In this document: positions 10,232-34,407 of the stretch, piece after piece
How the letters are laid out: each line of letters starts with the position of its first letter
Numbering within the stretch: the stretch's first letter is position 1
DNA from: a virus
Strand: one strand, 5' to 3'
IMG/VR virus record: IMGVR_UViG_3300044638_008303
Span: 28,545-92,544 of that record
Length of the DNA stretch: 64,000 nt
The notes under the pieces: generated by a model
Told to the model about the DNA's origin: nothing
Databases searched by the model: none
Seen by the model: only the letters and a program-made list of their open reading frames with translations
Translations under genes and position numbers: made by a program

Positions 10232-10237
10232 TATCTT

Positions 10238-12712: not shown

Positions 12713-15700
12713 TTAAATAACTCCGGTTATTCTAAAATTAAAACCACTAATCCCAGTATTATTTATATTTTTGATTACCAATTCTGCAACGTCAATATTT
12801 GAGTTGGAAGCTGCATTTAATTGATTAAAATAACCAATAGTCGTATTTATAACAAATGGGAATTCTCTCTCAAAAAATTGGTTATTAGTATATAAACCAC
12901 TAATTCCTATATAATTATTTTCTCTAAAATTAATTTGATTCGTTAATGAAAAACCAGTTGATAAACCCCATATTCCAGAAAAATTTCTAATACCTTGAAA
13001 AGTTGACACGTTACCAGTAATATTTCCAGAACCAGAATTATTAGAATAAAATCCAGTCCCTAAAAGAAGTTCAGAAATATTACCAGTCATAATTGGATCT
13101 CTATTTACTCGTTGAGATGTAAAAGTTGAAACTCCAAATTCATCTATATCTAAAATTCTTTCTCTAACAATTTTATATAATCTTGGGTAAAAATCAGTTC
13201 CAGATAAATAATTTATAATTTCTACACCGGTAGAATTAAAAAGTATATTTATATTACCAGAAGAACCACTAATATTGCTATTTAATATAATTGTATCGTT
13301 GTCCCCAGTTGTAGCTGTTACTAAAAATAAACCTGGATCATTATTAATTGTATTAATAAATACATTATTATTATTAAAATAAATTGGGGGTAAGAAAGAA
13401 GTATTATCAGAATTGAATGTTAAATCATTTCCATTTATAGATATAAAGTCAAAATTATTTATATTATTATAATTTATAGAAATTATAGCTTCAGAATTAA
13501 TAAATCCAGTTGGTTCTGGATAATAAGCAAACCGATCTCCAACTGGTGTTCCAGTAAAAACTAATCGACCAGTAGCATTTAATCTGCCACTAATAGTATT
13601 TCCAGAAACAATTCCTGTTATTGGATAATAACCAAGTACATCATATTTTACATACTCAACATTTTCAATTGTAGAATCAAAAGTTCCATTTGAAACTATT
13701 TCATGATACTGTACTGGGGAGCTTGCTAATCTGCCACCAAAAAGTAATTCTTGGTTAATAACCTCTGTTTTTACTGCTATTGCGTTTCCACTTATAATCC
13801 CACGCCCAGTAACAATTCCAGATATTGTTTCAGAAAAATATACAGATTGCGTTAATGGGTTGTAAAAATAACGACTATTATCTGTATAAAAAACATTTCC
13901 GACACCAAGACCAGATGTTGTTAAAAATCCAGTTCCGCTTTCGCTAATAATTCTTCCAGAAACTTTATTAAAAATGACTAATTGTTCATTTTCTTCTATT
14001 TTTCTAACAAAAGGTGTCGCAAAAAATTTATAAATACCACTATCTTCTGGAATCATCCTATAATTCCAAATACCAGAAATTTCTATTGGAAAAATTCCTT
14101 CTACATCAATAATATAATCTGCACCGATTGTGCATAGGGGCATAGATTTGTGTTCTGTTAAACTTCCTGTATCTAAAGTATATAAATTAACCTGTTGTAC
14201 ATAAAATGAGTCTTTTTGTAATAGAAGATCATCTGGATAAGAAATAAATCCAGATAGAGATACTCGATATTTATCATAAATTTTACTAATATCAAAACCA
14301 ATATCTTGCGAATTTTGTAAAGAAGAGTTTAATCCTGGAAGATTTAAATTATTAACGTTAAAATTCCATCCAGTTCTTATGATATGGTATTCTCCGATTG
14401 AATCCCCACCAGCACCGCCAGGTGGCCCTTCACCCGCTGCTTCACCACCCCCTCCTCCGGCCCCACCATCTCCACACAACTCTTGATTACTATTAGTTTG
14501 AACTAAATTACCGCTAGCGTCAATAGTATATTTTTTACATTCTTCTTTTGGAATGCTTACTGTTATCTCTTTAAAGGTTACGCTCGGCGGACATAAAGGA
14601 TTTTGATTAAAAGTTACAGTTCGCTGTTGTTCACGTAATATAACATCTTTGCAACCTGAAGGGCCAGGAGGTTCTTCTCCCGGTTCGGGTAGACCTTCTT
14701 CTTCTTCTTCTTCTTCTTCTAAACCGCCACCCTCAGAACCCATAGACCTTTGAATCCTTTCAATTTTTGCAAAATCTCCAGATAAATTATTACGAACATC
14801 TAAAGTCTCCCATAATTGAGTGTTTTTGTTAAATCCTTCTAATTGAATATCTATAGGAACTAAATAATTCCAGCCTTTAAAAAATTGAGATGGAAGCCTT
14901 GTTTGTGAAAATATAGAAATTGAATAAGTCATATCACTTACGTCTTTTATTTGTGGGTAAGACCTCAAGGATATAAAATCAATTCTATTATTAAAATGAC
15001 TTATTGGTAACATTCCAGTTTCTCCAGTATTTTTATAAAACTCCATCAGTTTTCCTGTAACAAATATTCCAGATTCTGTATTTTTTAAACATTCATAAGG
15101 ATACCAAACTGGATAAGTCTCTAATATATTTACTTTTGCATTTAATTGGTCAACAAGAGAATCTAATGAATTAAAATCATTAGGATAATATAGTCTAAAA
15201 CCAGTATTTAAATATGGTGGATAGTTACCCAAATGTAATTCTGAATATAATTTAGGAAAATTATAATTATAAAAACGCCAATCAATGTAGTCTCCACTAG
15301 ACCAGTTATTATATAAAAGATATCCACTATAAATTAGATTCGTATATCTAATTTCCTCTCCACTTATTGAGACAAGACTATTATTAACTTCTGCAGTCTT
15401 AATTTCTGTCATTCTTGCTTTGGCAGAAACGCCTGATAAAAATAATTGAAAAGCTCCAGAATCTCTTAAATCGCCAGTAAAACAAATCTCCTCTGGTTCT
15501 GGGGTCCCTGCGACTTCACACTTACGATTTTTTGCGCAAAAATCTTGGAGTTCGTTAAAAGTTAAAACACTTAAAGTATTAAAATTTTGAGTATATAATA
15601 TGGGATTTTTTTCTAAATTTAATACGTAAGCTTTTCCAGTTGCCGTGTTTATATCAATATTTCCAGTATAAACAGTACGTCCCGATAAAACTCCAGAAAC

Positions 15701-17137: not shown

Positions 17138-17148
17138 TTATATAATTT

Positions 17149-17173
17149 TCCTTATTCCTTTATAAAATTACAC
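17149..17173 (-). promoter_or_regulatory. GTGTAA late-promoter motif plus AGG-N4-AGG leader box
   Basis: GTGTAA-TTTTATA-AAGGAATAAGGA upstream of ATG 17137. Confidence 0.55.
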
Positions 17174-17234
17174 TATATTATTTATTATGATACCAATACA
17201 ATCTACAGAGTTATTAACATAAAATTGTGAATTA

Positions 17235-20200
17235 TTAATATTTAATTAAAGCATCAATACCACTCAAAATATTATTATTTAAAGAAATTTTTTCCATTGG
17301 AGTATGATATAATGGTTGGTTTAATAGATTATTTTCAAAACCTGGGGGGGTTACAATCCCGCCCCCATCTACAGGTGGGTTAATCCCTGGTATAAAACAT
17401 TCATAACCAGGTTTAATGTCCCAAGAACCATTTGGGCAAACTGGATTAAATTGAAGATCTTGACATGACACGCATACAAACTCATTTAATGCGAATGGTG
17501 TGAATTTATGTACAGTACTATTACGTCCTATTTCACTACAGCGTCTTTCAGAAGTAACTTGATATATACTTTCAAATCTAAGATAACATTCATTAAGCGT
17601 TGAGCAACACCAACATTGTCCCGCGCTACCAGCGTCAGTTTCACAACAACCAAACACAAAATCTGACAAATTTATACATTCGTTCGCATAAAATTTTAAA
17701 TCACCGCTGTTAAGAACAGTTAATATATTACGCCCAAAATTAAACTTTATCAAATCTGATTTTTGATTTGCGATTGTAAATGTTGGTGGCTCATTTACTC
17801 CAAGAAGAGAGGCGTCATAAACAGTATATCCATAACCAGAAATAAACTTAATTTTTGGATCTATTGAGTTATTAAAGCTCACAGCTGGTAGATCAAAACT
17901 CTGACCAATTTTATCATCTTGATTGTCTCCATATAAGTCAGGAGAAAATCTTTTCCAATTATTGTTTTCTTTTGAATATTTTTCAAAAACTACAATACCT
18001 GCAGTATTAAACTCTGATTGATCATCAGTACCGATACATCCGATACTACGATAACTTGGATACCCATCAAATCTTTGTACTAATTGAACTTTATAACCGT
18101 ATTGCATATTAGATCTCCAACCATGATTTATATCATAATTTGTATCAGTATCAGAAGGGCCGATAATTAATCCATTAAATTTATTTTTAGAAATAAAAAT
18201 ACTACTAAAATTAGAACTATTAATAGAGTCTATTAAATTCCAAGTTTCTCCGTAATCATAAGAAATATAAACATTATCAACTGATGTGGCAATTTGAATT
18301 TCTCCATTATCATTTATAGCGATATCAATCCAATTATTTGTAATACTTTTTCCGACCCAAGATTGTCCATAATTTCTTGAAACAAAAATTTGGATATTAT
18401 TACCAACTACCGTTTGAAATTGACCGTCTAAACTCATATCAACTTTTTGGTAAGGTCTAGAGAATTGACGTAAAACCCAGTTAACTCCATAATCATCAGA
18501 AGTATGAATGTTACCATTAAAAGCAACGGCTGTTTGATATTTACCATCTTTTGAAATAGAAACACTTCTCCAATTTTTATTAGTTAATAATACAGGATGA
18601 TTAATAGTAGACCAGTTAACTCCATAATCATTAGATCTATAAATTCTATTATTGGAAGCAACCGCAATTTGTATTTGACCATTTGAACTAATTTTAATAG
18701 ACTCCCAAGAATTTACTATTCCTCGAAGCGTCCAATTTTTTCCAAAATTATCTGACACATAGATATTATCATTAAAAGCAACGGCTGTTTGATATTTACC
18801 ATTTTCTGAAATAGCAACATCTTTCCACTGCTTATTAGTATTAACTACGGGGTGAACAACTTCGTTCCATGTAATTCCATAATTTCTGGAAGTAAATACT
18901 TTTCCATTATTTACTACTATTGTTTGAAAAATAGCATCATAACTTGATCCAATTTTACAATTTCCAAGTAAAAATGGGTTTGGAGATTTTGGTGACAATG
19001 AAATCTGATTAAAATTTTTACCAGAATTAATAGAAAACCACCCATTATTAGAATTTGTAATTAAACCAATAATATAATTATATTTTTCTTTATTTTTATT
19101 TAAAGCCGTTGTAATTAATTCGGCATTTACAACCGCTGTATTAAAATCCACTACCGACCAAGAGATTCCATAATCCTTAGACTCATAAACACTAGTTAAA
19201 GTACAAGCTAATTGAATATCACCACGACCGTTTAAACTAACACTATTCCAACTTAATTCTGTAAATGATTCTATCCAAGTGACTCCATAATCATGAGATA
19301 CAAAAATTTTACTCATTTCAGCTACAGCTGTTTGAAACTGTCCGGTATCACTTATATCAAGCTTTTTCCATTGTTTCGCTCCTTGGTATCCTTGAGACCA
19401 AGTGGCTCCATAATCATTAGATCTATAAATTTCGCCAATACCAGAAGACTCATTCCAAGCAAGAGCGGTTTGATATTTACCGTCTTCAGACATTGCAATT
19501 GCCGTCCAATTTTTAATAATATTAATCGTAGTTAAGTTATTACCATTATAAACTAATATATTTCCATTATTTTCTAATATTGTTTTATATCCGTTATTAG
19601 AAGACCAATCTTTCGTAGCTGCCATAGCCGCATCCCTATCATCAATTCCAATAATTTCTAGATCTGGGTTAAAAGGTCCTGGTGGTAATACCGTAGAAGA
19701 CAAACCTACAGGATAATAATCTAAAAGAAGTTGGTGTCGAACTAAACGATCCCAATAGAAAGAACCTCCCCTTTTTATAAAATTTGGATCATGATTTGTA
19801 GGCCCATTATATACATTTCCCCATGCCAACCATAAACTAAGATTATTTGTATTACTTAGGTCTGGTTTAACTAATGATATGTCTCGCCAAACCCTCCTAT
19901 CAAAAATCGTAATATCATCATAGTATTGGTTTGTAAAATTGACAACTTTAAATCTAGACATCGCCGGTGGACTGTCAAAAAAACTGATATCAACAATTCC
20001 ACCACCCACTAAAACAGGATCAGATATACTAGGCTCTATGAACTCTTCTCTATCGTCAAAAAATTTAGATTTCCAGTTTGCGAAATAATTTTGTTTAGGA
20101 TTCGCATAATAAGTTACAGTATTTCTAGCCATTGCTAATAAATTAGCTCTTGAATCCAAAATTAAACTACCTCTATTTAAATCTTTCAAAGCTCTAATTG

Positions 20201-22850
20201 AATTATATGGAATCGGCATTGGATCTGGTAAGATACCTTTAAAACAAGCGTTAGTAACTACATCATCTACGCCACCATAATTTGATAAAAGATCAATACA
20301 ATTATTAATATTCTGATCTGAATAATTTCTCCAATTAGTGACTTGCCAAGGGTATGGAACATTTTCATAACTATAATATGAAGTTGAAAAATTTTCAGCA
20401 CATTCATCCAATTCATTACAAATACTAGCGCCTTCTTGAATTAACCATACCGATGATCCACCAAAAAAAGGATCGTCCGGAATTGTCCGAATTACTCTCC
20501 TACGAATTCTTGAAAAAGGTTCTGATATTCTTAATATATGGTTCCATCTACCATATTGATTATTTGGATCCGAATTTAAACTATCTGGAACGTAATACCC
20601 CAAAAGACTAGTATTAATATTATTTTGACAAGTCCTAACTATATAAAATCCAGGGTCTGGAACCCCATTTAAACAAAAACCATAAGCCCTAGATTGGTAA
20701 CTTTTTGAATTATATGGTTTTGAGGTAGAGCCTAGCGTCGGTAAACTTTCATGCAAAAGATAAATAATTTCATCTCTAGCTAATACAGCTCGCCATGCTC
20801 CATCTTTTTCTGGCATTCTATAAAAAGGAGAGCAAAATGATTGTACCATACCCTTTTTTCCATTATTGAAAGGGTCTGAAATTATAAAATTAATTTTTTC
20901 GTCACTAATTGGAAATGTTTGATTTGTTATTATTCTACCCTCCCATTCGCCTGGCGGTGGCGGCAGTTCAGACTTGTTACAAGGCTCCATAAGAGGATCT
21001 ACAGCACCTTCTTTTGTAATTAACCTTGCAAAACTTTTTGTAAGCATATCAACATCCCACCCATAGGCCATATCTTTAGTATAAATCTCTAAATCTTCAC
21101 GAAGATTTATATTTTCATATAAAAATGGAGAAATATAAGTATTATAAATTTCCCAATTACCATAAGAATCAGGCCTAACAAAATATGGGTATTCTGGTGA
21201 GCTAATAAGTGGTGAAGATGTTACCCCATAAGGAAGATAATAAACATAAACTTTATTTAAATTTGGTAAACCTACAATCAAAGCATATGAATTAATAGCA
21301 ACTGAAACCCCTGCATATTCTAAACCTGGGGGGAGATCATAATTTAATTGATTCTGGGTTTCTACAAAAGATCCATAATCATCATATCGTTGAATTTTAA
21401 ATGTTTTAACATATATAGATTTTGGTTCGTTTGTATTTATATCATAATAAGCTCCGGCAATTGCGCAAGATGAATTCCCACAAATATCAAAAGCAATTGA
21501 AATTCCAAATCGAGATATTTCTGTCGGAGTAGATGCTGGGCCGTTGATTGTTTGTAATTTTTTAAATGAATATTTAGTTTTAACTATCCAAACACCTGTA
21601 AAAAAATCTAAACGAGATAAATCAATAGGTTCAATTTCGTATATATTTACCTTATTACTATTAGGAATACCGACAATTACTATAGTTCCAAATAAGACTT
21701 TCGCATACTCTTTATCTAAACTATAATGTTTCCAGAATAATTTACGAGAAGAAATAATTCTATTATCTGGATAAATAGATTGTTGATCAAAACTAAAATC
21801 TTCAGAAGATAATTCTGAAAAAAATAATTCATTAGATATTAATATATCTGTAATGTCTTGATCACCTGGTGTAATTTCAACAATACCCTGGTCCTTATAA
21901 CATAAATCAGATGCTGATTGAGTACATTCTGGCTCAACAGAGATGTTTCCATTTAAAGAAATCTTAACAAGACCATTAAAATATGTTTCTTTATAGTAAG
22001 TAAATTTGCCACCTATCAATATTTCTGTAACAGGATTCTGACCTATTGATGGAATTATATCATAAACAGTATCGTCAAATCCCGAGCCAGATTGAAAATT
22101 ATTACTTAAATTACCATTTGATTGTAAACTAATAATTCTATTAGCTGGATTATTTTTATAATTTAAAAATGAGCCACCAATAAAAATTTGATTTTGGCTA
22201 CGATAATAAATAGCTCGTACTTCATTATCAAACCCAGGGCCAATATCAAAAGTATTATCTATATTACCATCTGAGTTTAAAATAACTAGCCTATTTTTAT
22301 TAATATTATTATAAGTAGTAAATTTTCCACCAACAATAATTCTATTATCATTACTAATAGGATGTATATTATAAACATCATCATTGAATCCAGATCCAAT
22401 ATTAAATAATTGATCTATGCTACCATCTTCATTTAAACGAATTATTTTATTTCTGTTTTGGCCATTATATGAAGTAAATGATCCGCCAATTAGAATTTTA
22501 CCATCAGATTGCTGGGTAATAAATTCAACATCACCATTAAAACCACTACCAATATTAAATGATCCATCTATACTACCATCTTCATTTAAACGGATTATTC
22601 TATTTCTGTTTTGACCATTATAGGAGGTAAAAGACCCGCCAATTAAGATTTTTTTATTTTGTTGTATATATATTTTTTTTACATTATTATTAAAACCAGA
22701 GCCAATTTGAAAACTATCATCAATAGTTCCATATTTTGTTAAATATATAATTCTATTTGATATAGTACCTCTAAATTGTGTAAACTCTCCGCCCAAAAAA
22801 ATTCCAGAATCAGTATATGCGGTTGTTAAAACTTTATCATTAAAATGCAT
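17235..22850 (-). CDS. giant adhesin-like virion protein: delta-60 (DUF5122-like) propeller + Asp-box/BNR propellers + Cys-rich tail
   Basis: Repeats QSDGKILIGGSFTSYNG..RNRIIRLNEDGSID..F; many SxDYGxxW Asp-boxes; C-terminal Cys cluster. Confidence 0.8.
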   Translation of the reverse strand: MHFNDKVLTTAYTDSGIFLGGEFTQFRGTISNRIIYLTKYGTIDDSFQIGSGFNNNVKKIYIQQNKKILIGGSFTSYNGQNRNRIIRLNEDGSIDGSFNIGSGFNGDVEFITQQSDGKILIGGSFTSYNGQNRNKIIRLNEDGSIDQLFNIGSGFNDDVYNIHPISNDNRIIVGGKFTTYNNINKNRLVILNSDGNIDNTFDIGPGFDNEVRAIYYRSQNQIFIGGSFLNYKNNPANRIISLQSNGNLSNNFQSGSGFDDTVYDIIPSIGQNPVTEILIGGKFTYYKETYFNGLVKISLNGNISVEPECTQSASDLCYKDQGIVEITPGDQDITDILISNELFFSELSSEDFSFDQQSIYPDNRIISSRKLFWKHYSLDKEYAKVLFGTIVIVGIPNSNKVNIYEIEPIDLSRLDFFTGVWIVKTKYSFKKLQTINGPASTPTEISRFGISIAFDICGNSSCAIAGAYYDINTNEPKSIYVKTFKIQRYDDYGSFVETQNQLNYDLPPGLEYAGVSVAINSYALIVGLPNLNKVYVYYLPYGVTSSPLISSPEYPYFVRPDSYGNWEIYNTYISPFLYENINLREDLEIYTKDMAYGWDVDMLTKSFARLITKEGAVDPLMEPCNKSELPPPPGEWEGRIITNQTFPISDEKINFIISDPFNNGKKGMVQSFCSPFYRMPEKDGAWRAVLARDEIIYLLHESLPTLGSTSKPYNSKSYQSRAYGFCLNGVPDPGFYIVRTCQNNINTSLLGYYVPDSLNSDPNNQYGRWNHILRISEPFSRIRRRVIRTIPDDPFFGGSSVWLIQEGASICNELDECAENFSTSYYSYENVPYPWQVTNWRNYSDQNINNCIDLLSNYGGVDDVVTNACFKGILPDPMPIPYNSIRALKDLNRGSLILDSRANLLAMARNTVTYYANPKQNYFANWKSKFFDDREEFIEPSISDPVLVGGGIVDISFFDSPPAMSRFKVVNFTNQYYDDITIFDRRVWRDISLVKPDLSNTNNLSLWLAWGNVYNGPTNHDPNFIKRGGSFYWDRLVRHQLLLDYYPVGLSSTVLPPGPFNPDLEIIGIDDRDAAMAATKDWSSNNGYKTILENNGNILVYNGNNLTTINIIKNWTAIAMSEDGKYQTALAWNESSGIGEIYRSNDYGATWSQGYQGAKQWKKLDISDTGQFQTAVAEMSKIFVSHDYGVTWIESFTELSWNSVSLNGRGDIQLACTLTSVYESKDYGISWSVVDFNTAVVNAELITTALNKNKEKYNYIIGLITNSNNGWFSINSGKNFNQISLSPKSPNPFLLGNCKIGSSYDAIFQTIVVNNGKVFTSRNYGITWNEVVHPVVNTNKQWKDVAISENGKYQTAVAFNDNIYVSDNFGKNWTLRGIVNSWESIKISSNGQIQIAVASNNRIYRSNDYGVNWSTINHPVLLTNKNWRSVSISKDGKYQTAVAFNGNIHTSDDYGVNWVLRQFSRPYQKVDMSLDGQFQTVVGNNIQIFVSRNYGQSWVGKSITNNWIDIAINDNGEIQIATSVDNVYISYDYGETWNLIDSINSSNFSSIFISKNKFNGLIIGPSDTDTNYDINHGWRSNMQYGYKVQLVQRFDGYPSYRSIGCIGTDDQSEFNTAGIVVFEKYSKENNNWKRFSPDLYGDNQDDKIGQSFDLPAVSFNNSIDPKIKFISGYGYTVYDASLLGVNEPPTFTIANQKSDLIKFNFGRNILTVLNSGDLKFYANECINLSDFVFGCCETDAGSAGQCWCCSTLNECYLRFESIYQVTSERRCSEIGRNSTVHKFTPFALNEFVCVSCQDLQFNPVCPNGSWDIKPGYECFIPGINPPVDGGGIVTPPGFENNLLNQPLYHTPMEKISLNNNILSGIDALIKY
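22395..22655. repeat. imperfect direct repeat (~153-nt period) encoding delta-60 blades
   Basis: Two near-identical copies of ctaccatcttcatttaaacgRattattYtatttctgttttgRccattata at about 22420 and 22573. Confidence 0.75.
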
Positions 22851-22870
22851 AAATTATTATAATATTAAAA

Positions 22871-22876
22871 TTACAC
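22871..22876 (-). promoter_or_regulatory. GTGTAA late-promoter motif
   Basis: Lies in a 41-nt intergenic gap, 20 nt upstream of ATG 22850. Confidence 0.5.
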
Positions 22877-22891
22877 CATTTAAATTTAATT

Positions 22892-25800: not shown

Positions 25801-28588
25801 TACTCGACGAACTACTCGACGAGCTACTCGACGAGCTACTCGACGAGCTACTCGACGAGCTACTCGACGAGCTACTCGACGAGCTACTCGACGAACTAGA
25901 AAAAACTCTACACCAATTTGGATCAACAATATTATAAACCTCATCATATACCCATAATTTAGTTCCTATCGAAAAACTGTTACATATTCGTGGCGGTTCG
26001 CAAGATAACCCTAATCTTATATCTCTAAAATTATTAAAATAATTTACAGAATTAATGTAATATGTGCCGTTATAATTATTATTCCCTAAAATTAATATTT
26101 GATCACCAACAGAAGATCGGATACTTGGTATAATAGATGGGTTTAAATATAATAATCTTACCATTTTCTGCCCAAAATTTTGTGTATTACATATTTGAAA
26201 TTCTAAACCGTAATTAAAATTATCTCCTGAAAAGATTGGGTTTTGACTATTTATAAAAGTAATTGAACCGGATTTTTCAACAGAATATTGTTTTTTAGGC
26301 CAGTTTGAAAAACATTCCGACCAACAGTTCGTAATACTTGAATTATTAATAAAATAAAAATCTGGATTATCTATTGTAAAATAAATAATTGTTGGGTCAC
26401 ATGGGTATAATAAATTAGATTCTATACTAATATCGGTAATAGAAGGCACTATACCAGTGTCAAATATGGTAAATGGTTCTAATGTTGTTAATGTTTCTTC
26501 CCAACCCCCGCCATTATAATTGTTAGGAATTGGTTGTAAAATTGGATCTAAACCGCTTAAAAAGCCACTTTCAAATTCTAATTTTACATTGGGAACATCA
26601 AAAAGATGATAAAATTTTCCACTACCAGATGGCGTTTCCCCTAATCTGGAAATTCTTGTTCTACCGCCGGTTGGATGTCCGTCATATAATTGATAGTTCC
26701 CACTTATAAGTTGAAAATAACTATTTTCAAAAAATCTTTCTTCTTCCCCAGAAATTGGTCGTAATATATATCCAGTATATTGGAAATTATAAGTTGTATC
26801 ATCTTTAAAACATTGATTAGCAGTAACAAAAGATGGGATTTCATTAATTTCTATAGTTTCCGGAATTTTAGGATCACAAAAAGTTATATTTAAACCTGTT
26901 GAAGCTATACCATCGAAAAAGCCAGTAGAACTATTAAGAACAACTGAACCATCGACAGGATTAAATCCTGCCCCATCTTGATTCCAAAATAAAAAAGATT
27001 CTCCAGTTATTATTCCAACATAAGGTTTAAAAATAGTCCATTTACCAGGTTCAAAATTTAGTAAATAATCTCCGATAAGTTTACCGCTTGTTCTTCCCCC
27101 AGTTGCTAAAGCCCCCCCAGTAATTTTAAAAAATCCAGTAACATTCCCCGTAGGAGAAAGAGGCGGAGATACTAATCTGATAGTTTCATACTCAGATTGG
27201 TCAAAAAATAAAAATAATCCGCCAGTATACCGAAAAAATTTTGTTGCAAAACCAGTTCTTGTAGCAGTTTCATAATCATAGTCAAAAGAATATTGGGAAC
27301 ATATAGAATTACTTAAATTTGAAGAACAGATAGCGTTATAAGCTGATTCACTAATTGGAGGTGGTACAAAATTACCGCTACTATTAAGATACCAACCTCT
27401 TTTAGCATCTGGCACGACACCTGTTACCAAACCAGAATAAAAACCTGTTAACAAACCACCTTGAAAATTTATAAACCCACTAAATAAAATATTACCCTTA
27501 CTACCCCGTGCTGAAATATTTGTTAATGAATATATGTCTCCTATCCCAGAAGCTAATTTATCATATTTTTTTTCTATATATTGATCATCTGCAATTCTAA
27601 AAAAGCTTGCAATTCCAGAGCCTGTTCCGTATTCATAATAATTTCTTAGCGTATTGAATCCGCTAACCAACCCCGATACGTTTCCATATAAAAAACCGCT
27701 CCCTTCTATAAAACCAGATACAGTTTGGTTTGTTAAAAAAGCAGTTCTTTCTATTGGTATAAAATAATCCCCAGTAAAACCACTAATATATTTTAACTGA
27801 ATAGATAATTCAATATCTTTTTCATCGTAAAAAGATAAAATATAATTTACAGTATTATTGTTAGCAATATTATCTTGTTCCGGCCCAAAAGAAAGATATT
27901 GAATTTGGTCTTCTGGCGTTTCTAATATAAAACCAGAAACAGTAATATCAAAATTTAAAACTCCTATATTTGTATATAGAGTAATTGGTAAGGAAGAAGT
28001 TCCAATTATTAAGCCCGTATTAACTAAATTAAAAGAACCAGAGCTAGAAGGATTAATTAAAAAATTATTTGGTAAATTGAGAAAAAAATTATTATCTGAT
28101 AAAAATCCCGAAAATACATTTATAACACTGGAACCATTATTAAAAATAGTTATTGGTATGTTGGTATTTTGATAAATATATTCTTTAAAAGTATCTATAA
28201 AAAATACGGGTCTTTTCCCATAAATTATAAAATTATTAACATCAATAAAATTAGGATTACCACTTAAAATAAAAGAAGATAGACTAAAATCGTTTTTATT
28301 TTCAGCTCCATAAAGAAGACTATTATTTTTATATAAGTCAAAATAATTTTGACCTATATTACCGGAAAAATTTATATTTTCGTTACCAGCATAATTACCA
28401 ATAAGATAATTGTTTTTATTATAAATTTTATTATTTTTTAAATTAAAAATATGTAAAAGCTGGTTTTCTCCAGAAAAATAAAAATTAAAATTTTGATTGC
28501 CAGTTACTTCTTGGGGTAGCAAATTTAAATTCCAACTAATTTTATTTTGTGGATATATACTTTTCGAAAATATGCCAGAAATTGTCAT
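22892..28588 (-). CDS. giant virion structural protein with poly-Ser linker, Asp-box propeller and FG-GAP propeller (1898 aa)
   Basis: SG/TG-rich N-terminal half; about 35 consecutive Ser; SHDYGKTW/SNDYGITW boxes; FG...IGAP repeats at the C-terminus. Confidence 0.75.
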   Translation of the reverse strand: MTISGIFSKSIYPQNKISWNLNLLPQEVTGNQNFNFYFSGENQLLHIFNLKNNKIYNKNNYLIGNYAGNENINFSGNIGQNYFDLYKNNSLLYGAENKNDFSLSSFILSGNPNFIDVNNFIIYGKRPVFFIDTFKEYIYQNTNIPITIFNNGSSVINVFSGFLSDNNFFLNLPNNFLINPSSSGSFNLVNTGLIIGTSSLPITLYTNIGVLNFDITVSGFILETPEDQIQYLSFGPEQDNIANNNTVNYILSFYDEKDIELSIQLKYISGFTGDYFIPIERTAFLTNQTVSGFIEGSGFLYGNVSGLVSGFNTLRNYYEYGTGSGIASFFRIADDQYIEKKYDKLASGIGDIYSLTNISARGSKGNILFSGFINFQGGLLTGFYSGLVTGVVPDAKRGWYLNSSGNFVPPPISESAYNAICSSNLSNSICSQYSFDYDYETATRTGFATKFFRYTGGLFLFFDQSEYETIRLVSPPLSPTGNVTGFFKITGGALATGGRTSGKLIGDYLLNFEPGKWTIFKPYVGIITGESFLFWNQDGAGFNPVDGSVVLNSSTGFFDGIASTGLNITFCDPKIPETIEINEIPSFVTANQCFKDDTTYNFQYTGYILRPISGEEERFFENSYFQLISGNYQLYDGHPTGGRTRISRLGETPSGSGKFYHLFDVPNVKLEFESGFLSGLDPILQPIPNNYNGGGWEETLTTLEPFTIFDTGIVPSITDISIESNLLYPCDPTIIYFTIDNPDFYFINNSSITNCWSECFSNWPKKQYSVEKSGSITFINSQNPIFSGDNFNYGLEFQICNTQNFGQKMVRLLYLNPSIIPSIRSSVGDQILILGNNNYNGTYYINSVNYFNNFRDIRLGLSCEPPRICNSFSIGTKLWVYDEVYNIVDPNWCRVFSSSSSSSSSSSSSSSSSSSSSSSSSSSSSSSSSSSIINNLATVYDINSDQCSYSIAGEFSGFQTEDYLYPANRFLNLKDCLNSGKFIPSLPFECTSGEFDPDDDFPFERVVDTTYYYRSNWNKSLNISSGGQYILTVRNGSELLISHDYGKTWFQPDYNYKDIDGTIIHPKMSFPNYIPFTNMKYTAMSSNGQHMAVTGPFGVFFVSNDYGITWARKNLSDVSRWGNFPFNDITFSDKFSYGPVDISDNGRFITTSVSDYFVCTGDLSPNNCINYYGLLFSLTGNICVSSNSGETWRYKGVRGYSPIAESNSWASIKMSRDGQNQIAVCETADTGIGGVLLSARANRRCPPIFVSNNYGVTWSPKYLTNRVGQTAYTFDCGSPCGALVSEQYQPPCPDDNSAAPPDGYTGHGRMWASAAISNDGKTMFAGVLSAGRIWDPTQPGGYANGYSRRPDARKEMGLYVSYNSGKTWNQYSDPFNNFGGNTYYGKLNSFDINLSGPVTDIVLSPPPAPCCIRTLKSIFTGNPGTFQNSVPTFLYPGNHNNRTIDLRLTNEFRNYSKIISSYDNKYSICLIKNGPMIMSSNSGNNFEIVEIPSSFNLHKAITEKKLSLEESSSEQWLSNNSSFLKDGYSIDTSYSVYTDQKVILLGRGDLNTCQLYSRDSRSINYLGLIRSFTGPVLNSEFGYSVATHPTEQIIFIGAPNDSNRGAVYVYENINNNWILKQTLTGSSNSRFGHSIYFGKNNKNDLFVGAPKDSDNSLNQGAVYYYTGNSVSNWGFKQKLSSTVNNGNFGLNLQTNFSGDVLIVGGTGNLNTGCLVYSYNNNNNTWSLKNSLTGSFNSRFGNSISMDENGNVITIGAPYDSTNGLQAGAVSIYTGDKNIGWSFYNKLTGAPNSLFGSKIITYGKNYYDTGPSLRGAINITVSSPGYNQNSGAVWTYRNNIMEPFKWYLYDILLNKYPNSTLGTTIFYPSDYLGFFNNGNIKTRLWIGTSYLNSGFLNFY
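25797..25892. repeat. 12-bp tandem repeat x8 (GAGCTACTCGAC) encoding poly-Ser
   Basis: Eight contiguous units, one of them the variant GAACTACTCGAC. Confidence 0.95.
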
Positions 28589-31542
28589 AAAGTTAATACT
28601 TTAGTATTACTAGTTCTTTGACTGGTTCTGGTATATAAATCTTTTAATATTTGATAATTACCACCCGCGCCAACGCCCCCGCCCATACTAACTGGTTTTA
28701 TATATTTATCTAGTAAACTAGATAAAGAAGTACCCATTCCGGGCGGTTGAAATAACTTATCACTAAATTCATACTGTGTAAAAACGCCATCACTTGAAAT
28801 AATTAAACTTAAAGAAGATAATCCCTCTTCAACTTTAAAATTTTCAGGAATTAAACCCGCAAGTTTAAAACTTATAAATTTTAATGGATCTGAATATGAA
28901 TAAGATTGCATATTAGCTAAATCTTTTACATAAGCCTCTAATAATGCTTCATTTGGGATACAACTTCCACCAAATAAATTAAGAAAATTTTCTGCAATAT
29001 CATTTATGTAATAATCAACGGAATAAACTTTTGTTGGATTTTTTACTGAAACACTATTAATTAATTCTATTTTTGGAATAAAAACAGGTATATCATCAGA
29101 GCATTTGACAAAAACTCTGTATCCTTTTGTGTAACTACTATTTAAATAACTTGGATTAGGGTCGCTAAGATTCGCTTGAGTAGTAAAAGCTTGCGCCATA
29201 TCTTGGGTTTGTTCACTAAAGGACTGTACTGGGGGAAAAATTTTCATTCCAGGTACAGAAATTTCTATACAGGAAGAAGATTGAAGGCCCCATTTACCAC
29301 GATTTACTAAGATCGTTTTTCCGTCCGCCCCCTGTCTTTCTAAATAATGATTTTCTGCTATTTCTTGATTAGGATGTTTATCAATTAATTGGGCGCTTAA
29401 TTTCCAATCTTTTAACTCTTTTACTATAAAAAGTTTTATACTTGTATCGTATTTTGCTTGAGGATACAAATCGAATAATAAATTCGGCCTGCCATCAACT
29501 GTACCAAATTTTTTAAAACATTGATCCCCATGCCAATTGAATAAAGTTTGATACCATTTAGTTGCATATTCTAGTTCTGGAAGCCATTTCGTATTGGCTC
29601 TTTCCCATAATAAAAAACCTTTAGTTGAATATATCTCAGGTTTTTTTTCTTTTACCGTTGATTGAAGAGTATTTTTTCTTTCATCTCGTTTGATTTTATT
29701 TTCACTAAGCCCTGCTTTAAATTTTGATTTAAGAAATCTTCCTAGTATAGATTGTTTCGCATGTCCAAAATTAAAAATCTTAATATTATCCATATTTTGA
29801 CCAATTTTTATAAAATTACCGCTACCATCTTCTGGAGGACCCTCTACATTACATTCTGATTTAGCGTTACTACTATTGGGAACATTAGTTGAAAATAAAC
29901 GGTAGAAATGTTTTCCTAAAAAATTAGTAGCTAAATTTTGTTCAGTTTCTATCATTTGGCTCCAACCATCTTCATTTACTTTCGCAATAAAAAAATAATA
30001 TTTTGGATCTTCTGGAGTGCCACCGCCAAGCATATAAAATTCTCTTTGTTGTCGTGTCATCAAAGTATCTCTTATTAAAAAAAACTTATTTTGCTGTTCT
30101 CCTATTAGTTTTGGATGAAAAACGTTGTAAACTTCCATATCACCAAAAAATTTTAATGTTTTTTTGTCAGCAGGTTCAGTTGCTGGACTCCCATCTTCTT
30201 CATAATTATCTGGGGAACTTTCAAAATAAGAATCGGTAATAGTCATATCACTTGATGTCGTGGTATTCCCAATAGTTCTAGTATTAGATGCGTTGTTAGA
30301 GGAACCTGGTGATTGACTACTTGGTGAAGAAGCGGGTGCTGAAGAACTACTAGATGGCGCAGAACTAGAAGAAGAATTGGATGAGCTAGAAGACCCTGAA
30401 GAACTAGAAGAGCCAGCAGACATTTTATAATTATCGTTTAATACTTTATGATTTAAAATTCCATAATAAGAAAACCAAAAAAAACTATTTCTTAAATCTA
30501 CGCTATAATAATTAAGAGTTACGCCTATTTCTTTTGCTACTAAATCACTTTTTATTACTGCATTCGGTACGGCTGAATTATTTGATTTTCCATCAAGAGT
30601 TGATAATTCTGCAAAACTTAAAGGTTTTAAATTTTGATAGGTATCATTTTCACAACTATATGAACGAGGACCCCCAGGTTTGTTAAAAGGACCAATAAAA
30701 CCTCTACTATAAGTACCTTCTAAAGTTGTTTTATATTTTAAATCAGTAACATTTTTTATGTTTTTAGCCGTTTCATAAGATATTAATTTTGAATTAGTAA
30801 TTAAAACTGTTCTATCAATAATTTTTAACTCATTTTTTAGCGCATCGTAATAAAATGTTAAGCCAAGGTCATCCATCCAACTATTTAAGACATTTCTTAA
30901 ATTTCCAACATGTTGAGCTTTGGGAAGATATACTTTAGATGCATCAAAAGTAATTATTATTTCTGTAACTTTTGCTTTAATTTGATTAATTAAATTATGA
31001 AATGTATAGTAAACAGGGTAGTTTTCCCAGTTAGTAGTTTCCGCATCGCATATTGACTTATATTTAGTTGGCGGCATAAATGGACATGGGTCACATGGAT
31101 CAATCTGAAGTTTTGTTTCTGTATAATCCACAATAGAATCTAAATTTTTGTCACAGGGATGATACTGTTTACCAACAAGTATAAGATTAGATGGATTAGA
31201 GTTAGCGCTCCTTTTTCCATGTATAGTATTTAAGCCAACAAACCATTGATCTAATTTTATAGATTTATCAACATATTCTAATTTTAATACTTTTTGCTCA
31301 GTAGTTGAGTCTAATTCTGTACTTATTAAGTAACCTTTAAATGTAAAGTCTCCAACTGTAATCGTTTCTTCTTTTTCTAAATCAGGTTCGGGCGGATTAT
31401 AAGTTCCAAGTTTATTTGCAATCGTCACACTTAATTTACTTGGACTACTACCACCATTAAATTGCCAATTAAAGTCTATAATACCATCATCGCCTTGTAA
31501 TCCAGGAACTGAAATTTTATCAATTGTAATTTGTTGTGACAT
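28585..31542 (-). CDS. putative baseplate hub / tail-tip (Tal-like) protein
   Basis: Downstream of the tape measure; N-terminal PSKLSVTI...FKGYLIS...LKLEYVD hub-like pattern; Ser-rich insertion. Confidence 0.55.
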   Translation of the reverse strand: MSQQITIDKISVPGLQGDDGIIDFNWQFNGGSSPSKLSVTIANKLGTYNPPEPDLEKEETITVGDFTFKGYLISTELDSTTEQKVLKLEYVDKSIKLDQWFVGLNTIHGKRSANSNPSNLILVGKQYHPCDKNLDSIVDYTETKLQIDPCDPCPFMPPTKYKSICDAETTNWENYPVYYTFHNLINQIKAKVTEIIITFDASKVYLPKAQHVGNLRNVLNSWMDDLGLTFYYDALKNELKIIDRTVLITNSKLISYETAKNIKNVTDLKYKTTLEGTYSRGFIGPFNKPGGPRSYSCENDTYQNLKPLSFAELSTLDGKSNNSAVPNAVIKSDLVAKEIGVTLNYYSVDLRNSFFWFSYYGILNHKVLNDNYKMSAGSSSSSGSSSSSNSSSSSAPSSSSSAPASSPSSQSPGSSNNASNTRTIGNTTTSSDMTITDSYFESSPDNYEEDGSPATEPADKKTLKFFGDMEVYNVFHPKLIGEQQNKFFLIRDTLMTRQQREFYMLGGGTPEDPKYYFFIAKVNEDGWSQMIETEQNLATNFLGKHFYRLFSTNVPNSSNAKSECNVEGPPEDGSGNFIKIGQNMDNIKIFNFGHAKQSILGRFLKSKFKAGLSENKIKRDERKNTLQSTVKEKKPEIYSTKGFLLWERANTKWLPELEYATKWYQTLFNWHGDQCFKKFGTVDGRPNLLFDLYPQAKYDTSIKLFIVKELKDWKLSAQLIDKHPNQEIAENHYLERQGADGKTILVNRGKWGLQSSSCIEISVPGMKIFPPVQSFSEQTQDMAQAFTTQANLSDPNPSYLNSSYTKGYRVFVKCSDDIPVFIPKIELINSVSVKNPTKVYSVDYYINDIAENFLNLFGGSCIPNEALLEAYVKDLANMQSYSYSDPLKFISFKLAGLIPENFKVEEGLSSLSLIISSDGVFTQYEFSDKLFQPPGMGTSLSSLLDKYIKPVSMGGGVGAGGNYQILKDLYTRTSQRTSNTKVLTL

Positions 31543-34407
31543 TTAATTATTATATATTATATCTGGTAACTGTTCTAAAAATAGAACCCCAGTTTTTAGA
31601 TTTAAACTTGATAATTCATTATAATCTTCATTATACGATTGTCTTATACCATTTACATATATTTCCGACAATCTTTCGTAATATTTTTGTGGAGAATAAG
31701 AGTAAGGCTTTCCACTTTCTATATATGAATAATCGTAATTTTTAGGAACAAAGCATAAATTACCAGTAATTCCCGTATAGAAAGAATAATTATTAAAAGT
31801 AATGTTATTTGAAGAATAAACTAACCCCCCAGCGTTAACTGATGAACTTGGAGCGCCCTGTACAAAAATTGACCCATCATTATTTAAGCTAAGATGTTTT
31901 CCATGATATGGAGAAACCTGACCGCTAGGAATTTCTTGATGAAAAGCCCACCCAATATTTAAATTACCTGTAAATATTATAGTACTATCACCTTCATTTT
32001 TTGCTGTAGCTATAATTGTTCCATTATTATTAATATCAATACTCGAACCAATTATACCAGTAATTACTTGTTTTAATACCCATTCATTATTTAAATCTCC
32101 TGTATAAATAGAAATACCAGAAGAACTCCCGAAATTACCGATTACACACACATTACCCATGCCATTACATGCGACATCCCATCCAAAGTAAGGAATCTGA
32201 GTACTAGGTTTTAATATGTTTTTAATACCCCAACCAACTAAAGAATTTCCAGTATATATAATTGCTGACCCCGTAAAATTACTCTGATCATTTGGCGCTC
32301 CTACTACTAAAATTGTACCGTCATTATTGGTATCCATAGAGTTACCTATTTGCTTACAATTATTAATTGAACTTAACTGTTGTTTGAAATTCCATCCATT
32401 ATTTATATCACCGGTAAAAATAACTACAGTTCCATTTCGATCATTATTAAAAGGAGCCCCAACTGCTAAAACTGTACCGTCATTATTAGATGTAGTTGCA
32501 TAACCAAACCATCCTACAGCATCATAAATAATTTCAATTTCTTCATCCTCAATTATTTCAATAGATTCCTCATAAGGTAAATCATTTTTATATTTCCATC
32601 CATTATTTGCATCACCAGTATAAATAGAAACCTTATTTATTCCGAAGCTACCTATCATCAATAAATTAGCACTACTATTAGTTGCAAGACTATTACCAAA
32701 AAATTCATTATTTAGGATACCAGTGATTGTTTGTTTTACATTCCAGCCAAGAATTGAATTCCCAGTGTATATAGCTACAACTCCTCTAGCAGTATTTTGT
32801 AAATAATCGCCCACTATTATTACAGATTCGTCATTATTTATTCTACTACTTCTATAACTCCTACTATTAAAAATATTCTGTAACTCATCTCTTAAATCAT
32901 AATTATTATCAATACTATAATGTATATTTTCAGTTAATTTTTGCCCATTAAAAAATATATTAAAACTACTATTTGATAGCGATGGGATAGAAATAGATGA
33001 TTCTATATATAGATCTTCATAACATACGGTTTCCCCGGTATTAAAATCAACAAAAATAGAGTCTGAAGATGGTTGGCCATATAAATTAAAAGGAACAATT
33101 TTTCCGTTTTCTACGCCATAATCATTTTTAACAATTCTTATTAAATCTGGATTGTAAGAATTACTTAAATCAATAAGTTCTCCAGACGTTTGATATTGCC
33201 CATTAATAAATAAAGATTCGTTTTCTATAGTGCGGTTGGGTAAATAGTAACCATAATCAAACCTATTTTGAGATAAAAATAAATTTTTATTATTAATTTT
33301 ACTTATATCTCCAGTAATTAAACCAATTTCTATTAAATCGTCATTTATTTTATCTGTTGTAAATTTTATATAATCTTTGTTATAATTATTAAATTTATTC
33401 AAATTTCTTTTCAAAGAAATCGTTAAAGGTTCATTAAAAAATTGAAAAAATGAACCGGTAAGAAGAGTAAAGCCATATAACGGTCTTAAACCGTATAATG
33501 GGCTATTAGTATATCCAACTGTCTGAAAACCCCAATCATCATATATAACACCTGTTGCAGTTCTTTGAAAACCTGTAATATATAATCCGCTTCCAGTAAT
33601 TTCATATCTTCGTCCTGTGATTCCCGTCACAAGACCTGACGCTAAAGCGCCTCCAGACGCATAAGTATCATGAATAAAGCCTGTATAAATAAAAGGTAAT
33701 TCTCGATTAAATAATCCAGAACCCACAATAAAATTATCGATATACCCCAAAAATGGTTGATTATTATTATATGAATTAATTGACTCAGGGTTATATCCTA
33801 TATATAAATTTTTTGGATTGTATATAAAGTTTGAATTAATATTAAAATTAGAATTAATTACCGAATTTTGAACAAAATTAAAGTAGCCAAAATTTACAGT
33901 GTTATTAGAAATATTTAAATATACACTAGATTTATTTGATAAATTAGACTCTTGAACAAAAACTCTTGAACCAGATGGTTCAAAATATTCAAAATAAAGA
34001 TTATTATTAGCCGTAACACCAAATTCAAAACCTTGATTAACATTTATAAAGTAAGTACTACCATCTTCATTATATTGTAAAATATTATCTTTTGTAATAC
34101 TAGATATTAAAGTACTAGATCCAACCCTTATTTTTTCAAAATCTATAATAAAAGTAGAATCATTATAATTTATAAAATTATTTATACCAGTTATTCTTGC
34201 GTAATTACCAGAAAAATATCCACGACCACTTGTTGACCATAATTCATAAGGAAAAGGAATTATATTTGCAGATAAACGCCCAGAATTAATTCCATTATTT
34301 TTTATAGTAGACCCGGTTTCTAAAAAGTTATATCTTAAAACTAATTTAGAATAAATATCTGGACGGGCAAACTGTATAAAATATAGATTATCTTCAATTT
34401 TATTCAT
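31543..34407 (-). CDS. virion protein: LamG/ConA-like N-terminal domain + inserted FG-GAP propeller
   Basis: LVLRYNF...LYIGY...FLGYIDNF is LamG-like; GTVLAVGAP/GTILVVGAP repeats; FFNGQKL and YVNGIRQ motifs. Confidence 0.7.
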   Translation of the reverse strand: MNKIEDNLYFIQFARPDIYSKLVLRYNFLETGSTIKNNGINSGRLSANIIPFPYELWSTSGRGYFSGNYARITGINNFINYNDSTFIIDFEKIRVGSSTLISSITKDNILQYNEDGSTYFINVNQGFEFGVTANNNLYFEYFEPSGSRVFVQESNLSNKSSVYLNISNNTVNFGYFNFVQNSVINSNFNINSNFIYNPKNLYIGYNPESINSYNNNQPFLGYIDNFIVGSGLFNRELPFIYTGFIHDTYASGGALASGLVTGITGRRYEITGSGLYITGFQRTATGVIYDDWGFQTVGYTNSPLYGLRPLYGFTLLTGSFFQFFNEPLTISLKRNLNKFNNYNKDYIKFTTDKINDDLIEIGLITGDISKINNKNLFLSQNRFDYGYYLPNRTIENESLFINGQYQTSGELIDLSNSYNPDLIRIVKNDYGVENGKIVPFNLYGQPSSDSIFVDFNTGETVCYEDLYIESSISIPSLSNSSFNIFFNGQKLTENIHYSIDNNYDLRDELQNIFNSRSYRSSRINNDESVIIVGDYLQNTARGVVAIYTGNSILGWNVKQTITGILNNEFFGNSLATNSSANLLMIGSFGINKVSIYTGDANNGWKYKNDLPYEESIEIIEDEEIEIIYDAVGWFGYATTSNNDGTVLAVGAPFNNDRNGTVVIFTGDINNGWNFKQQLSSINNCKQIGNSMDTNNDGTILVVGAPNDQSNFTGSAIIYTGNSLVGWGIKNILKPSTQIPYFGWDVACNGMGNVCVIGNFGSSSGISIYTGDLNNEWVLKQVITGIIGSSIDINNNGTIIATAKNEGDSTIIFTGNLNIGWAFHQEIPSGQVSPYHGKHLSLNNDGSIFVQGAPSSSVNAGGLVYSSNNITFNNYSFYTGITGNLCFVPKNYDYSYIESGKPYSYSPQKYYERLSEIYVNGIRQSYNEDYNELSSLNLKTGVLFLEQLPDIIYNN

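Follow-up and report, generated by a model that had tools for sequence, protein, structure and literature searches.

In the tail-fiber proteins of an abundant, uncultured phage from water, about half of the glycines are preceded by serine or threonine, and this excess of the dipeptide Ser/Thr-Gly ([ST]G) is genuine and under selection. Most probably, the signature corresponds to tight turns of the fiber folds; judging from the sequences, it could also be a site of sugar attachment. The window, i.e., the whole stretch of 64,000 nucleotides that was analyzed, contains about 40 ORFs, three or four of which show the bias. When five related genomes are taken together with the window, the bias is found in 29 out of 716 ORFs, the distribution of the z values across ORFs is bimodal, and Ser or Thr precedes 51% of the glycines in the 29 fiber proteins versus 16% in the 687 other ORFs. 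The features are listed in Table 1.

Table 1. Features of the window, with observed and expected numbers of [ST]G dipeptides.
Feature	Position (nt)	Strand	Length (aa)	[ST]G observed	[ST]G expected	z	Remarks
Probable third GT-B enzyme	4077–5168	-	363				Weak GT1-family similarity only
GT-B (GT4/GT1-like) + DUF4214 + GT9 N-lobe-like fusion	7075–8991	+	638				Clade core gene
GT9 C-lobe-like (residues ~30–186) + unknown domain of ~215 aa	8993–10198	+
Terminal fiber-type protein	12713–17137	-	1474	64	23.8	9.5
DUF5122/BNR propeller protein	17235–22850	-	1871	13	20.8		Unenriched
Fiber-type protein	22892–28588	-	1898	70	32.9	7.6
Conserved tail-module protein	28585–31542	-	985	2	11
Fiber-type protein, three parts	31543–34407	-	954	35	14.3	6.2	Parts from AF2, Foldseek and alignments
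FG-GAP propeller of 31543–34407	31768–32925	-					Y-T-G-[ND] blades
TG-repeat shaft of 31543–34407	33403–33672	-
ConA/LamG-like jelly roll of 31543–34407	33673–34230	-					[ST]G at hairpin turns
Tape measure protein	37621–46296	-	2891				No bias, O/E 0.80
Tube-region, neck-region and capsid ORFs	46341–53707	-					No significant bias
Fn3-containing structural protein	58902–62129	-	1075	24	13.2	3.4	Moderate excess

Three ORFs (12713–17137, 22892–28588 and 31543–34407) are the only strongly biased ones in the window, with observed/expected ratios (O/E) of 2.1–2.7 and z values of 6–9.5, and none of 5000 shuffles gave an [ST]G count as high as that observed. The first-pass annotation had counted by hand 13 glycines out of 21 after Ser or Thr in each of two dense segments, 13503–13972 (residues 1056–1212 of ORF 12713–17137) and 27410–27790 (residues 267–393 of ORF 22892–28588); both counts proved exact on recounting, and the recurrence of the bias that it reported in 31543–34407 is equally real. 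In the terminal fiber-type protein, the dense parts are residues 289–710 (nt 15008–16273; 25 of 40 glycines after Ser or Thr) and residues 990–1474 (nt 12716–14170; 32 of 50), and residues 1–288 and 711–989 are at the background level. Its C-terminal module has 21 homologs with the same bias (z up to 16.5); the AF2 model of residues 990–1474 is poor (pLDDT 47). In ORF 22892–28588, the N-terminal 800 residues (nt 26189–28588) carry 44 [ST]G in 79 glycines (z 9.3), values close to background are found in the BNR-like part and in the FG-GAP part (nt 23174–23905), and the alignment of the orthologs contains conserved [ST]G columns.

The bias is limited to a discrete subset of fiber-type proteins; the earlier statement that it saturates the exposed structural proteins was thus too strong. 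Within the range 12713–34407, to which it had been assigned, the three ORFs above are biased, but 17235–22850, which represents an internal negative control, and 28585–31542 are not. The depletion in the latter is not conserved (O/E of the orthologs from 0.3 to 1.09), so that an avoidance of [ST]G in the interleaved unenriched proteins, as under off-target pressure, was discarded. The bias proposed for the tail tube, terminator and adaptor was not recovered: ORFs 46341–52483 have O/E values of 0.8–2.2, all with z below 2, and the tube candidate (48547–49653) harbors seven [ST]G versus 5.5 expected (z 0.7, shuffle p 0.30). The capsid-like ORF 52583–53707 has an O/E of 0.80 and two Ser/Thr within its last 40 residues, and no S/T-rich C-terminal tail was found among ORFs 46341–53707. 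NrdJ, the glycosyltransferase (GT) genes and the tape measure had correctly been described as lacking the bias (O/E 0–1.05).

The bias works at the level of the peptide and not of the DNA. While [ST]G is enriched, the reverse order G[ST] does not exceed its expected frequency; moreover, Ser and Thr are the only residues favored before Gly, Thr (O/E 3.35) more than Ser (2.33). When these two are set aside, Asn and Asp precede Gly about as often as expected (O/E 1.03 and 1.12, respectively), which rules out the avoidance of Asn-Gly and Asp-Gly (deamidation) as the cause. The content of Gly, Ser and Thr is higher in the enriched proteins than in the rest, as would be the case if the excess were an artefact of S/T/G-rich regions, of codon bias or of a DNA motif; nevertheless, such an origin is extremely improbable. 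Composition is ruled out by the shuffles restricted to blocks of 30 residues, under which z is still 5.6–9.6, and by the unenriched G[ST]; a DNA motif or codon bias is ruled out by the contribution of every Ser, Thr and Gly codon, both Ser codon boxes included. Position counts also confirmed the hydrophobic residues that had been noticed around the dipeptide, the context of the sites being hydrophobic-[ST]-G-x-hydrophobic. An extended motif [ST]-G-x-T was rejected, since its last position is hydrophobic and shows no excess of Thr.

The [ST]G sites are kept in 73% (close homologs) and 61% (distant homologs) of the cases, whereas other S/T positions stay Ser or Thr in 46% and 30%, respectively. 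Furthermore, Ser or Thr precedes 37–39% of the lineage-specific glycines versus a background of 16%, a sign that the pressure is still acting in folds that are unrelated. None of the T4 fiber and baseplate proteins and of their T5 counterparts has a bias beyond z 3, and gp5, gp12, gp34 and gp37 of T4 have no [ST]G excess. Only 23 out of 146 representatives of the FG-GAP homologs are enriched, and a Bacteroidota T9SS FG-GAP homolog has an O/E of 0.7.

The sites are fixed positions of short β repeats, turns of propeller blades and hairpins of jelly rolls. The repeated units include (I/V)-[TS]-G-(Y/F) shaft repeats of three, four and seven residues, FG-GAP blades of the type Y-T-G-N..G-W (in agreement with the [YF]-T-G-[ND] previously reported in these blades) and, in relatives, LRR units N-x-L-T-G-x-I-P, one relative (G001) harboring an LRR protein with N-Q-L-T-G-x-I-P-S-L-S-G units. 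Altogether, the excess is carried by jelly roll, BNR, FG-GAP, LRR, shafts and non-repetitive modules. The occurrence of the motif in unrelated folds, which had been taken as an argument against a structural repeat, is therefore confirmed, but a structural repeat is involved all the same, since tandem repeats contain many of the sites at invariant positions. Alignment A2 resolves the dense stretch into tandem repeats with a Gly every 3–4 residues and T-G pairs that do not vary; in 25 sequences with a mean column identity of 24%, both T264-G265 and T278-G279 are invariant. The AF2 model of 31543–34407 (pLDDT 72.7) places the jelly-roll [ST]G at strand-end hairpin turns; in the same monomer model the dense stretch consists of two strands of 31–35 residues forming a long ribbon. 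Thr spacings of 3 and 4 would put the side chains on both faces of the strand, so that not all of them would be exposed.

ORF 31543–34407 can be aligned with the FG-GAP parts of 22892–28588 and 62204–63769 (~30% identity), in which PF14312 recognizes repeated blades with 45.8 and 28.5 bits, respectively (cut-off 23). The blade Thr is also found in generic FG-GAP blades without the following Gly (Y-T-R-S-G..W) and interchanges with Val in 62204–63769; it is older than the Gly after it. On the other hand, Ser or Thr before Gly is not demanded by any fold: the BNR blades of 17235–22850 have [DN]-G where the homologous protein of G001 has S-G or T-G. The sites are distributed across anchor as well as shaft modules, with no concentration in the distal binding domains. 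Searches for cultured-phage relatives of the fibers and the capsid found none, PHROGs and Pfam gave nothing for most structural ORFs, the ESM Atlas search gave no result, and PDB sequence searches with the fiber families and the GTs gave no match.

The best explanation of these data, which we rate at slightly less than an even chance, is a structural turn rule acting on unmodified proteins. [ST]G would be the preferred strand-end or turn dipeptide of the modular tail-fiber and receptor-binding proteins of this clade: a hydrophobic strand residue would be followed by Ser/Thr, then by a Gly making a tight turn, and then by the next strand, hydrophobic again. The hydroxyl would cap the turn, the dense stretches may represent oligomeric β shafts, and the excess could be explained without any modification; the neighboring GT genes would have another target or would exploit a motif present for structural reasons. 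This rule is favored by the confinement of the bias to one protein class with bimodal z values, by the tandem repeat with its invariant T-G pairs, by the hairpin-turn sites and the two-faced Thr of the model, by the retention of the sites compared with other S/T positions, by the blade Thr that lacks a Gly or is replaced by Val, by the hydrophobic flanks and by the features of the GT9-like enzyme described below (no iron-finger cysteines, RfaF as the nearest solved relative). Against it stand the different residues before Gly in homologous BNR blades, the small share of enriched FG-GAP representatives together with the T9SS homolog, the T4 and T5 proteins, the Ser/Thr at lineage-specific glycines, and the fact that Ser/Thr are not replaced by Asn or Asp, which usually form such turns before Gly. 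No structural cause was found for the convergence of many folds of one clade on [ST]G.

Precedents for such a rule exist in repetitive β proteins: L-[ST]-G-x-I-P is the consensus of plant-specific-type LRRs, and triple β-helix fibers such as T4 gp5 have Gly-kinked repeats. As in these proteins, Gly occupies a fixed corner with a small polar or β-branched residue before it, and the short tandem repeats with a corner Gly (alignment A2) resemble trimeric β-helix and β-spiral shafts, the likeness being drawn here from sequence and monomer models. Unlike in them, one dipeptide recurs across many unrelated unit types in one clade. If the signature is only structural, it would represent a clade-specific building rule across folds and a cheap sequence marker for fiber and receptor-binding genes in a large clade left unannotated by Pfam and PHROGs.

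The presence of three GT-like genes in the genome, already noticed in the first-pass annotation, was confirmed; two are supported by Pfam, and all three are conserved among relatives. They are located 2.5–9 kb from the last fiber gene in all the genomes examined, and in 54 out of 80 GT-centered loci a large enriched ORF is found within 10 kb. At least 559 relatives of the GT4-like gene are known from IMG/VR, clustering at 90% identity divides its core protein into 2883 clusters or more, and the GT9-like gene is present in 13 out of 14 related records. ORF 8993–10198 evolves much faster than its operon neighbors, as the fibers do. The GT operon, at 6143–10996, is core to the whole clade, as is the bias, and the comparison was made inside the clade, where no GT-less control exists; their co-occurrence therefore says nothing on glycosylation. 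PF01075 matches the GT9-like protein over the C-lobe only (E 3.8e-8), the NCBIfam LPS heptosyltransferase models score far under their cut-offs, and the best solved relative by profile is the LPS enzyme RfaF (1PSW, E 4.6e-4). The protein has just four Cys (11, 81, 126 and 249) and no CxxC, C249 alone being invariant in alignment A4.

An alternative to the structural rule is that the hydrophobic-[ST]-Gly turns are O-glycosylation acceptor sites on the tail fibers, which we consider a serious but less probable possibility. The enzymes would be the cytoplasmic GT-B proteins of the clade (the GT4-DUF4214-GT9N fusion, the GT9C-like protein and the third GT), they might recognize a strand-loop-strand shape as the bacterial autotransporter heptosyltransferases (BAHTs) do on AIDA-I and TibA, and the glycan could serve for fiber shielding, stabilization or tuning of adhesion. 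An excess that is one-directional, specific for Ser/Thr, set at the peptide level and common to several folds speaks for it, as do the appearance of S/T-Gly at non-conserved glycines too, the lack of bias in the T4/T5 controls and in the cellular FG-GAP homolog, the vicinity of three clade-core GT genes to the fibers and the fast evolution of the GT9C-like gene, like that of the fibers. So far, however, it is a candidate based on sequence, and phylogeny confounds the co-occurrence of the bias and the GTs, both traits being clade-wide. Moreover, the bias is not virion-wide (the large exposed proteins 17235–22850 and 62204–63769, the capsid and the tube are unenriched), and many sites are invariant repeat positions, 3–4 residues apart, on both strand faces. 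A related, somewhat more specific and slightly more doubtful proposal is that the clade, which ranks among the most abundant clades of uncultured aquatic phages, may densely O-glycosylate its tail fibers at these turns through dedicated clade-core enzymes, among them a GT9 fold divided between two ORFs. Viruses would then have their own version of the shape-directed hyperglycosylation of autotransporters, with a dipeptide signature readable from sequence alone. If the sites are glycosylated, they would be the first case of phage tail fibers glycosylated in a motif-directed manner, with consequences for host recognition, for the stability of the particle and for the role of the many unexplained GTs of environmental phages.

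The BAHTs TibC and AAH hyperglycosylate the β-helices of TibA and AIDA-I; one mapped site, Ser313 of AIDA-I, lies in an N-S-G-G loop, Ser but not Thr is modified, and TibC has a four-cysteine iron finger and an N-terminal β-barrel followed by the catalytic lobes (PMC4358343). As in these systems, a putatively GT9-related cytoplasmic enzyme is encoded beside a large repetitive β-rich protein (an adhesin in the case of BAHTs). The strand-end context of the dipeptide would fit an acceptor hydroxyl in a short loop that joins short strands, as in BAHT substrates, and the recognition would be directed by structure, as it is in BAHTs, which follow no strict linear sequon. However, the phage sites are predicted ones in which Thr is more enriched than Ser, no iron finger is present in the phage GT9-like protein, and its GT9 C-lobe is at the N-terminus, with an N-lobe-like stretch in the preceding ORF, an arrangement not collinear with TibC. 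Since TibC was also not among the PDB matches to the GT9-like profile at E values up to 10, membership of this enzyme in the BAHT family was rejected. In mycobacteriophages, O-linked glycans are placed on the C-termini of capsid and tail-tube subunits (Freeman et al. 2023, Cell Host Microbe 31:1216, as cited in PMC12619734). By analogy, GTs encoded by the phage could attach glycans of cytoplasmic origin to its virion proteins; unlike in that system, the capsid and the tube have here neither the bias nor an S/T-rich tail, and the candidate sites are dipeptides dispersed over fiber turns.

The hydroxyl-Gly turns might instead serve another hydroxyl-dependent function, such as phosphorylation or acylation, a hydrogen-bonding surface for a host polysaccharide, or a faster, chaperone-free folding of β fibers. 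A hydroxyl-specific, cross-fold and continuing pressure acting on proteins of the receptor-binding class is in line with this idea, which we nevertheless regard as unlikely: neither an enzyme nor a ligand emerged as a candidate, and the sites lie over anchor and shaft modules instead of gathering in distal binding domains.

As for DNA as a target of the GTs, phage GT-B enzymes similar to LPS enzymes add heptose to 5hmC, and DNA-glycosylating systems are accompanied by a C5-methyltransferase and 5mYOX or by thymidylate-synthase-type enzymes (bioRxiv 10.1101/2023.12.21.572611). Such partners were not found in four complete genomes of the clade: the thymidylate-synthase-type hydroxymethylase (PF00303) and the C5-methyltransferase (PF00145) are absent according to profile searches with working controls, and PF12851 (TET/JBP) gave no match in a search that lacked a working positive control. 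DNA glycosylation through the known acceptor pathways, which depend on enzymes supplying hydroxymethyl-pyrimidines, was thus rejected with the same reserve for TET/JBP; a DNA target for the GTs is weakened, and this counts in favor of O-glycosylation. The likeness to the phage GTs that glycosylate DNA is that they too are GT-B enzymes related to LPS biosynthesis, found in uncultured phages and sometimes near structural genes.

The excess of Ser or Thr directly before Gly ([ST]G) noticed in the first-pass annotation is real, yet narrower in reach than claimed. Its hand counts in the segments 13503-13972 and about 27410-27790 are exact, 13 of 21 glycines following Ser or Thr in each. Within 12713-34407, the range assigned to the bias, the excess is carried by three giant distal-tail fibre-type ORFs, including 31543-34407, for which it had been specifically claimed (Table); their observed counts were reached by none of 5000 shuffles, and shuffling in 30-residue blocks left the excess unchanged. 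ORFs 17235-22850 (observed/expected ratio, O/E, 0.63) and 28585-31542 (O/E 0.18) lie in the same range and do not share it. In the latter, where 11 [ST]G would be expected, there are just two (shuffle p about 4e-4); this depletion is not conserved, since O/E varies between 0.3 and 1.09 among the orthologues of the ORF. The bias also attributed to the tail tube, terminator and adaptor falls short of significance (z <2 for every ORF in 46341-52483), while NrdJ, the glycosyltransferases (GTs) and the tape measure, described as unbiased, are indeed at or below expectation, as is the capsid.

Table. [ST]G content and modules of the enriched ORFs, and coordinates of the GT-like and tape measure genes in the window.
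Feature	Coordinates	Strand	[ST]G observed	[ST]G expected	z	Details
Fibre-type ORF	12713-17137		64	23.8	9.5	enriched residues 289-710, 990-1474; near background 1-288, 711-989
Fibre-type ORF	22892-28588		70	32.9	7.6	enriched residues 1-800; near background 801-1898
Fibre-type ORF	31543-34407		35	14.3	6.2	enriched residues 1-335; near background 336-880 (O/E 1.7-2.0, z <=2.0)
ORF with moderate excess	58902-62129		24	13.2	3.4	
GT-B domain, DUF4214 and GT9 N-lobe-like stretch	7075-8991	+				N-lobe-like stretch at residues 530-638
GT9 C-lobe-like	8993-10198	+				C-lobe-like at start of protein (residues about 30-186)
Third GT-like gene	4077-5168	-				weakly GT1-like
Tape measure protein	37621-46296	-				2891 aa, PF10145

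The window belongs to a tailed-phage genome of low GC content (about 32%) whose minus strand carries the structural genes. Sequence searches retrieved no match to its capsid and fibres among cultured phages, and PHROGs and Pfam gave no name to most of its structural ORFs. The capsid-like protein has 95 IMG/VR relatives; their contigs reach 178 kb, and several bear terminal repeats. The window was compared with five relatives: the genomes of G001, G005 and G006 are complete, those of G010 and G013 partial. In each of them the per-ORF z is bimodal, with a background O/E of 1.1-1.2 and a handful of outliers; these belong either to the syntenic tail module past the tape measure or to other fibre-like genes. 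The bias is shared by proteins homologous to the C-terminal module of 12713-17137, the most extreme having Ser or Thr before 105 of 169 glycines (z 16.5). With the window and the five genomes pooled, the 29 enriched proteins (26,400 aa in total) have 51% of their glycines after Ser or Thr, versus 16% in the 687 other ORFs. The density of the remaining glycines is about 5% in both sets, so that [ST]G seems to come on top of normal Gly use.

All six Ser codons and all Thr and Gly codons are represented at [ST]G, which indicates that the bias acts on the peptide. It is directional, G[ST] not being enriched, and before Gly it favours Ser and Thr alone (O/E 2.0 and 3.0, respectively, in the three fibre-type ORFs; 2.33 and 3.35 in the 29 proteins). 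All other residues are depleted there to about the same degree; thus, there is no special avoidance of Asn-Gly or Asp-Gly. The flanks, at position -1 and at the second position past Gly, are hydrophobic. A window site is still [ST]G in 73% of cases among homologues that are 45-80% identical, and in 61% among those that are 28-36% identical, Ser and Thr exchanging freely; at other Ser/Thr positions, either residue persists in only 46% and 30%, respectively. Even where Gly is present in 15% or less of the family members, Ser or Thr precedes 37-39% of these glycines; the preference is therefore still acting, and not merely inherited.

Residues 1-520 of 31543-34407 were modelled by AF2 with 25 homologues (pLDDT 72.7). 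In this model residues 60-245 fold as a ConA/LamG-like jelly roll with its [ST]G at hairpin turns and strand ends; Foldseek matched it, at fold level only, to the generic lectin-like jelly-roll subdomain found in receptor-binding domains of toxins with solved structures. The model gives two strands 31-35 residues long for the dense stretch 246-335, which aligns as a tandem array (I/V)-[TS]-G-(Y/F)-x-x, with Gly every 3-4 residues and with T264-G265 and T278-G279 invariant at a mean column identity of 24%. Residues 990-1474 of 12713-17137 reached a pLDDT of only 47; confidence is low in the dense [ST]G stretches, a pattern to be expected if they folded only in the oligomer. The [YF]TG[ND] motif ascribed to FG-GAP blades was found in the blade alignment as Y-T-G-[ND]-x-x-x-G-W, and some blades of 62204-63769 have Val in place of the Thr. 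In the relatives, an enriched LRR protein is built of N-Q-L-T-G-x-I-P-S-L-S-G units and enriched fibres of N-P-S-G-F-I-T-G and L-S-G / T-T-G units.

Concerning the three GT genes proposed, 7075-8991 and 8993-10198 hold GT domains, and the third shows weak similarity to GT1. One GT9 fold appears to be split across the first two; a single base separates the stop codon of the former from the ATG of the latter, an arrangement kept in four relatives. The best solved relative of 8993-10198 by profile is the LPS heptosyltransferase RfaF (E 4.6e-4); the same search of solved structures gave no match to TibC, a bacterial autotransporter heptosyltransferase (BAHT). BAHTs possess a four-cysteine iron finger (PMC4358343), whereas the cysteines of this type are absent from the phage protein. 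The GT operon forms part of the clade's core: of 14 records, 13 contain the GT9-like gene, and the GT4-like gene counts at least 559 IMG/VR relatives and at least 2883 protein clusters. In all five genomes the operon adjoins the last fibre genes, and an enriched ORF of 400 aa or more lies within 10 kb in 54 of 80 GT-centred loci. Since both traits are clade-wide, their co-occurrence carries no independent weight. The GT9C-like protein is a fast-evolving GT within a conserved operon, sharing 65% identity with its G001 counterpart (124526-125731), against 82-94% for the operon neighbours and 99% for the capsid.

Overall, the analysis shows that the excess stems from a dipeptide used at turns or corners, within the repeat units and hairpins of a single protein class. 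An unmodified structural rule, under which [ST]G would serve as a turn dipeptide without modification, accounts for it with a likelihood just short of even. What speaks most strongly against a purely structural origin is that no fold requires [ST]G, as follows from these controls. In T4, gp5, 6, 7, 8, 9, 10, 11, 12, wac, 18, 34, 35, 36 and 37 have O/E 0.56-1.65, every z being <2; in T5, pb1 has O/E 0.75, pb2, pb3, pb6, pb8 and the portal 1.0-1.6 (z <2), and pb4 1.87 (z 3.0). FG-GAP-region homologues reach z >=5 in 23 of 146 representatives and stay at z <1 in 77 (the low-bias ones include a Bacteroidota T9SS protein), generic blades reading Y-T-R-S-G-T-T-W or similar. Finally, BNR/Asp-box blades have [DN]-G and S-x-D-Y-G in 17235-22850, and S-G and S-x-N-T-G at the homologous positions of G001 131839.

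The sites may instead be O-glycosylation acceptors, a serious rival that we consider possible rather than probable. It draws its weight from a pressure for [ST]G that spans folds, is hydroxyl-specific and still acts, from BAHTs being known to modify a Ser-Gly loop, and from a core GT set with no obvious DNA route: four complete genomes of the clade contain no ThyA-type enzyme or C5-methyltransferase, nor any TET/JBP enzyme in a search run without positive control, making a DNA target for the GTs less likely. The structural rule and glycosylation are not mutually exclusive, as an enzyme could exploit a structural motif.

At equal positions of the tail module, 17235-22850 has DUF5122 and BNR propellers and G001 131839-134145 an RCC1-like domain and BNR, which fits domain swapping in receptor-binding proteins. 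A second fibre-like module, distant from the tail operon, lies at 53.6-69.7 kb of G001, where four paralogous proteins of 560-655 aa, one with a weak M12/reprolysin-like metallopeptidase match, are interleaved with [ST]G-rich proteins, two out of three of which match FG-GAP regions. The GT operon and the third GT-like gene flank 5480-6103, which encodes a sigma-70 region-2-like protein (Pfam E 1.7e-4, below cut-off). At 3524 aa in G010 (81774-92348) and 2891 aa in the window, the tape measure proteins are very long, which implies unusually long tails.
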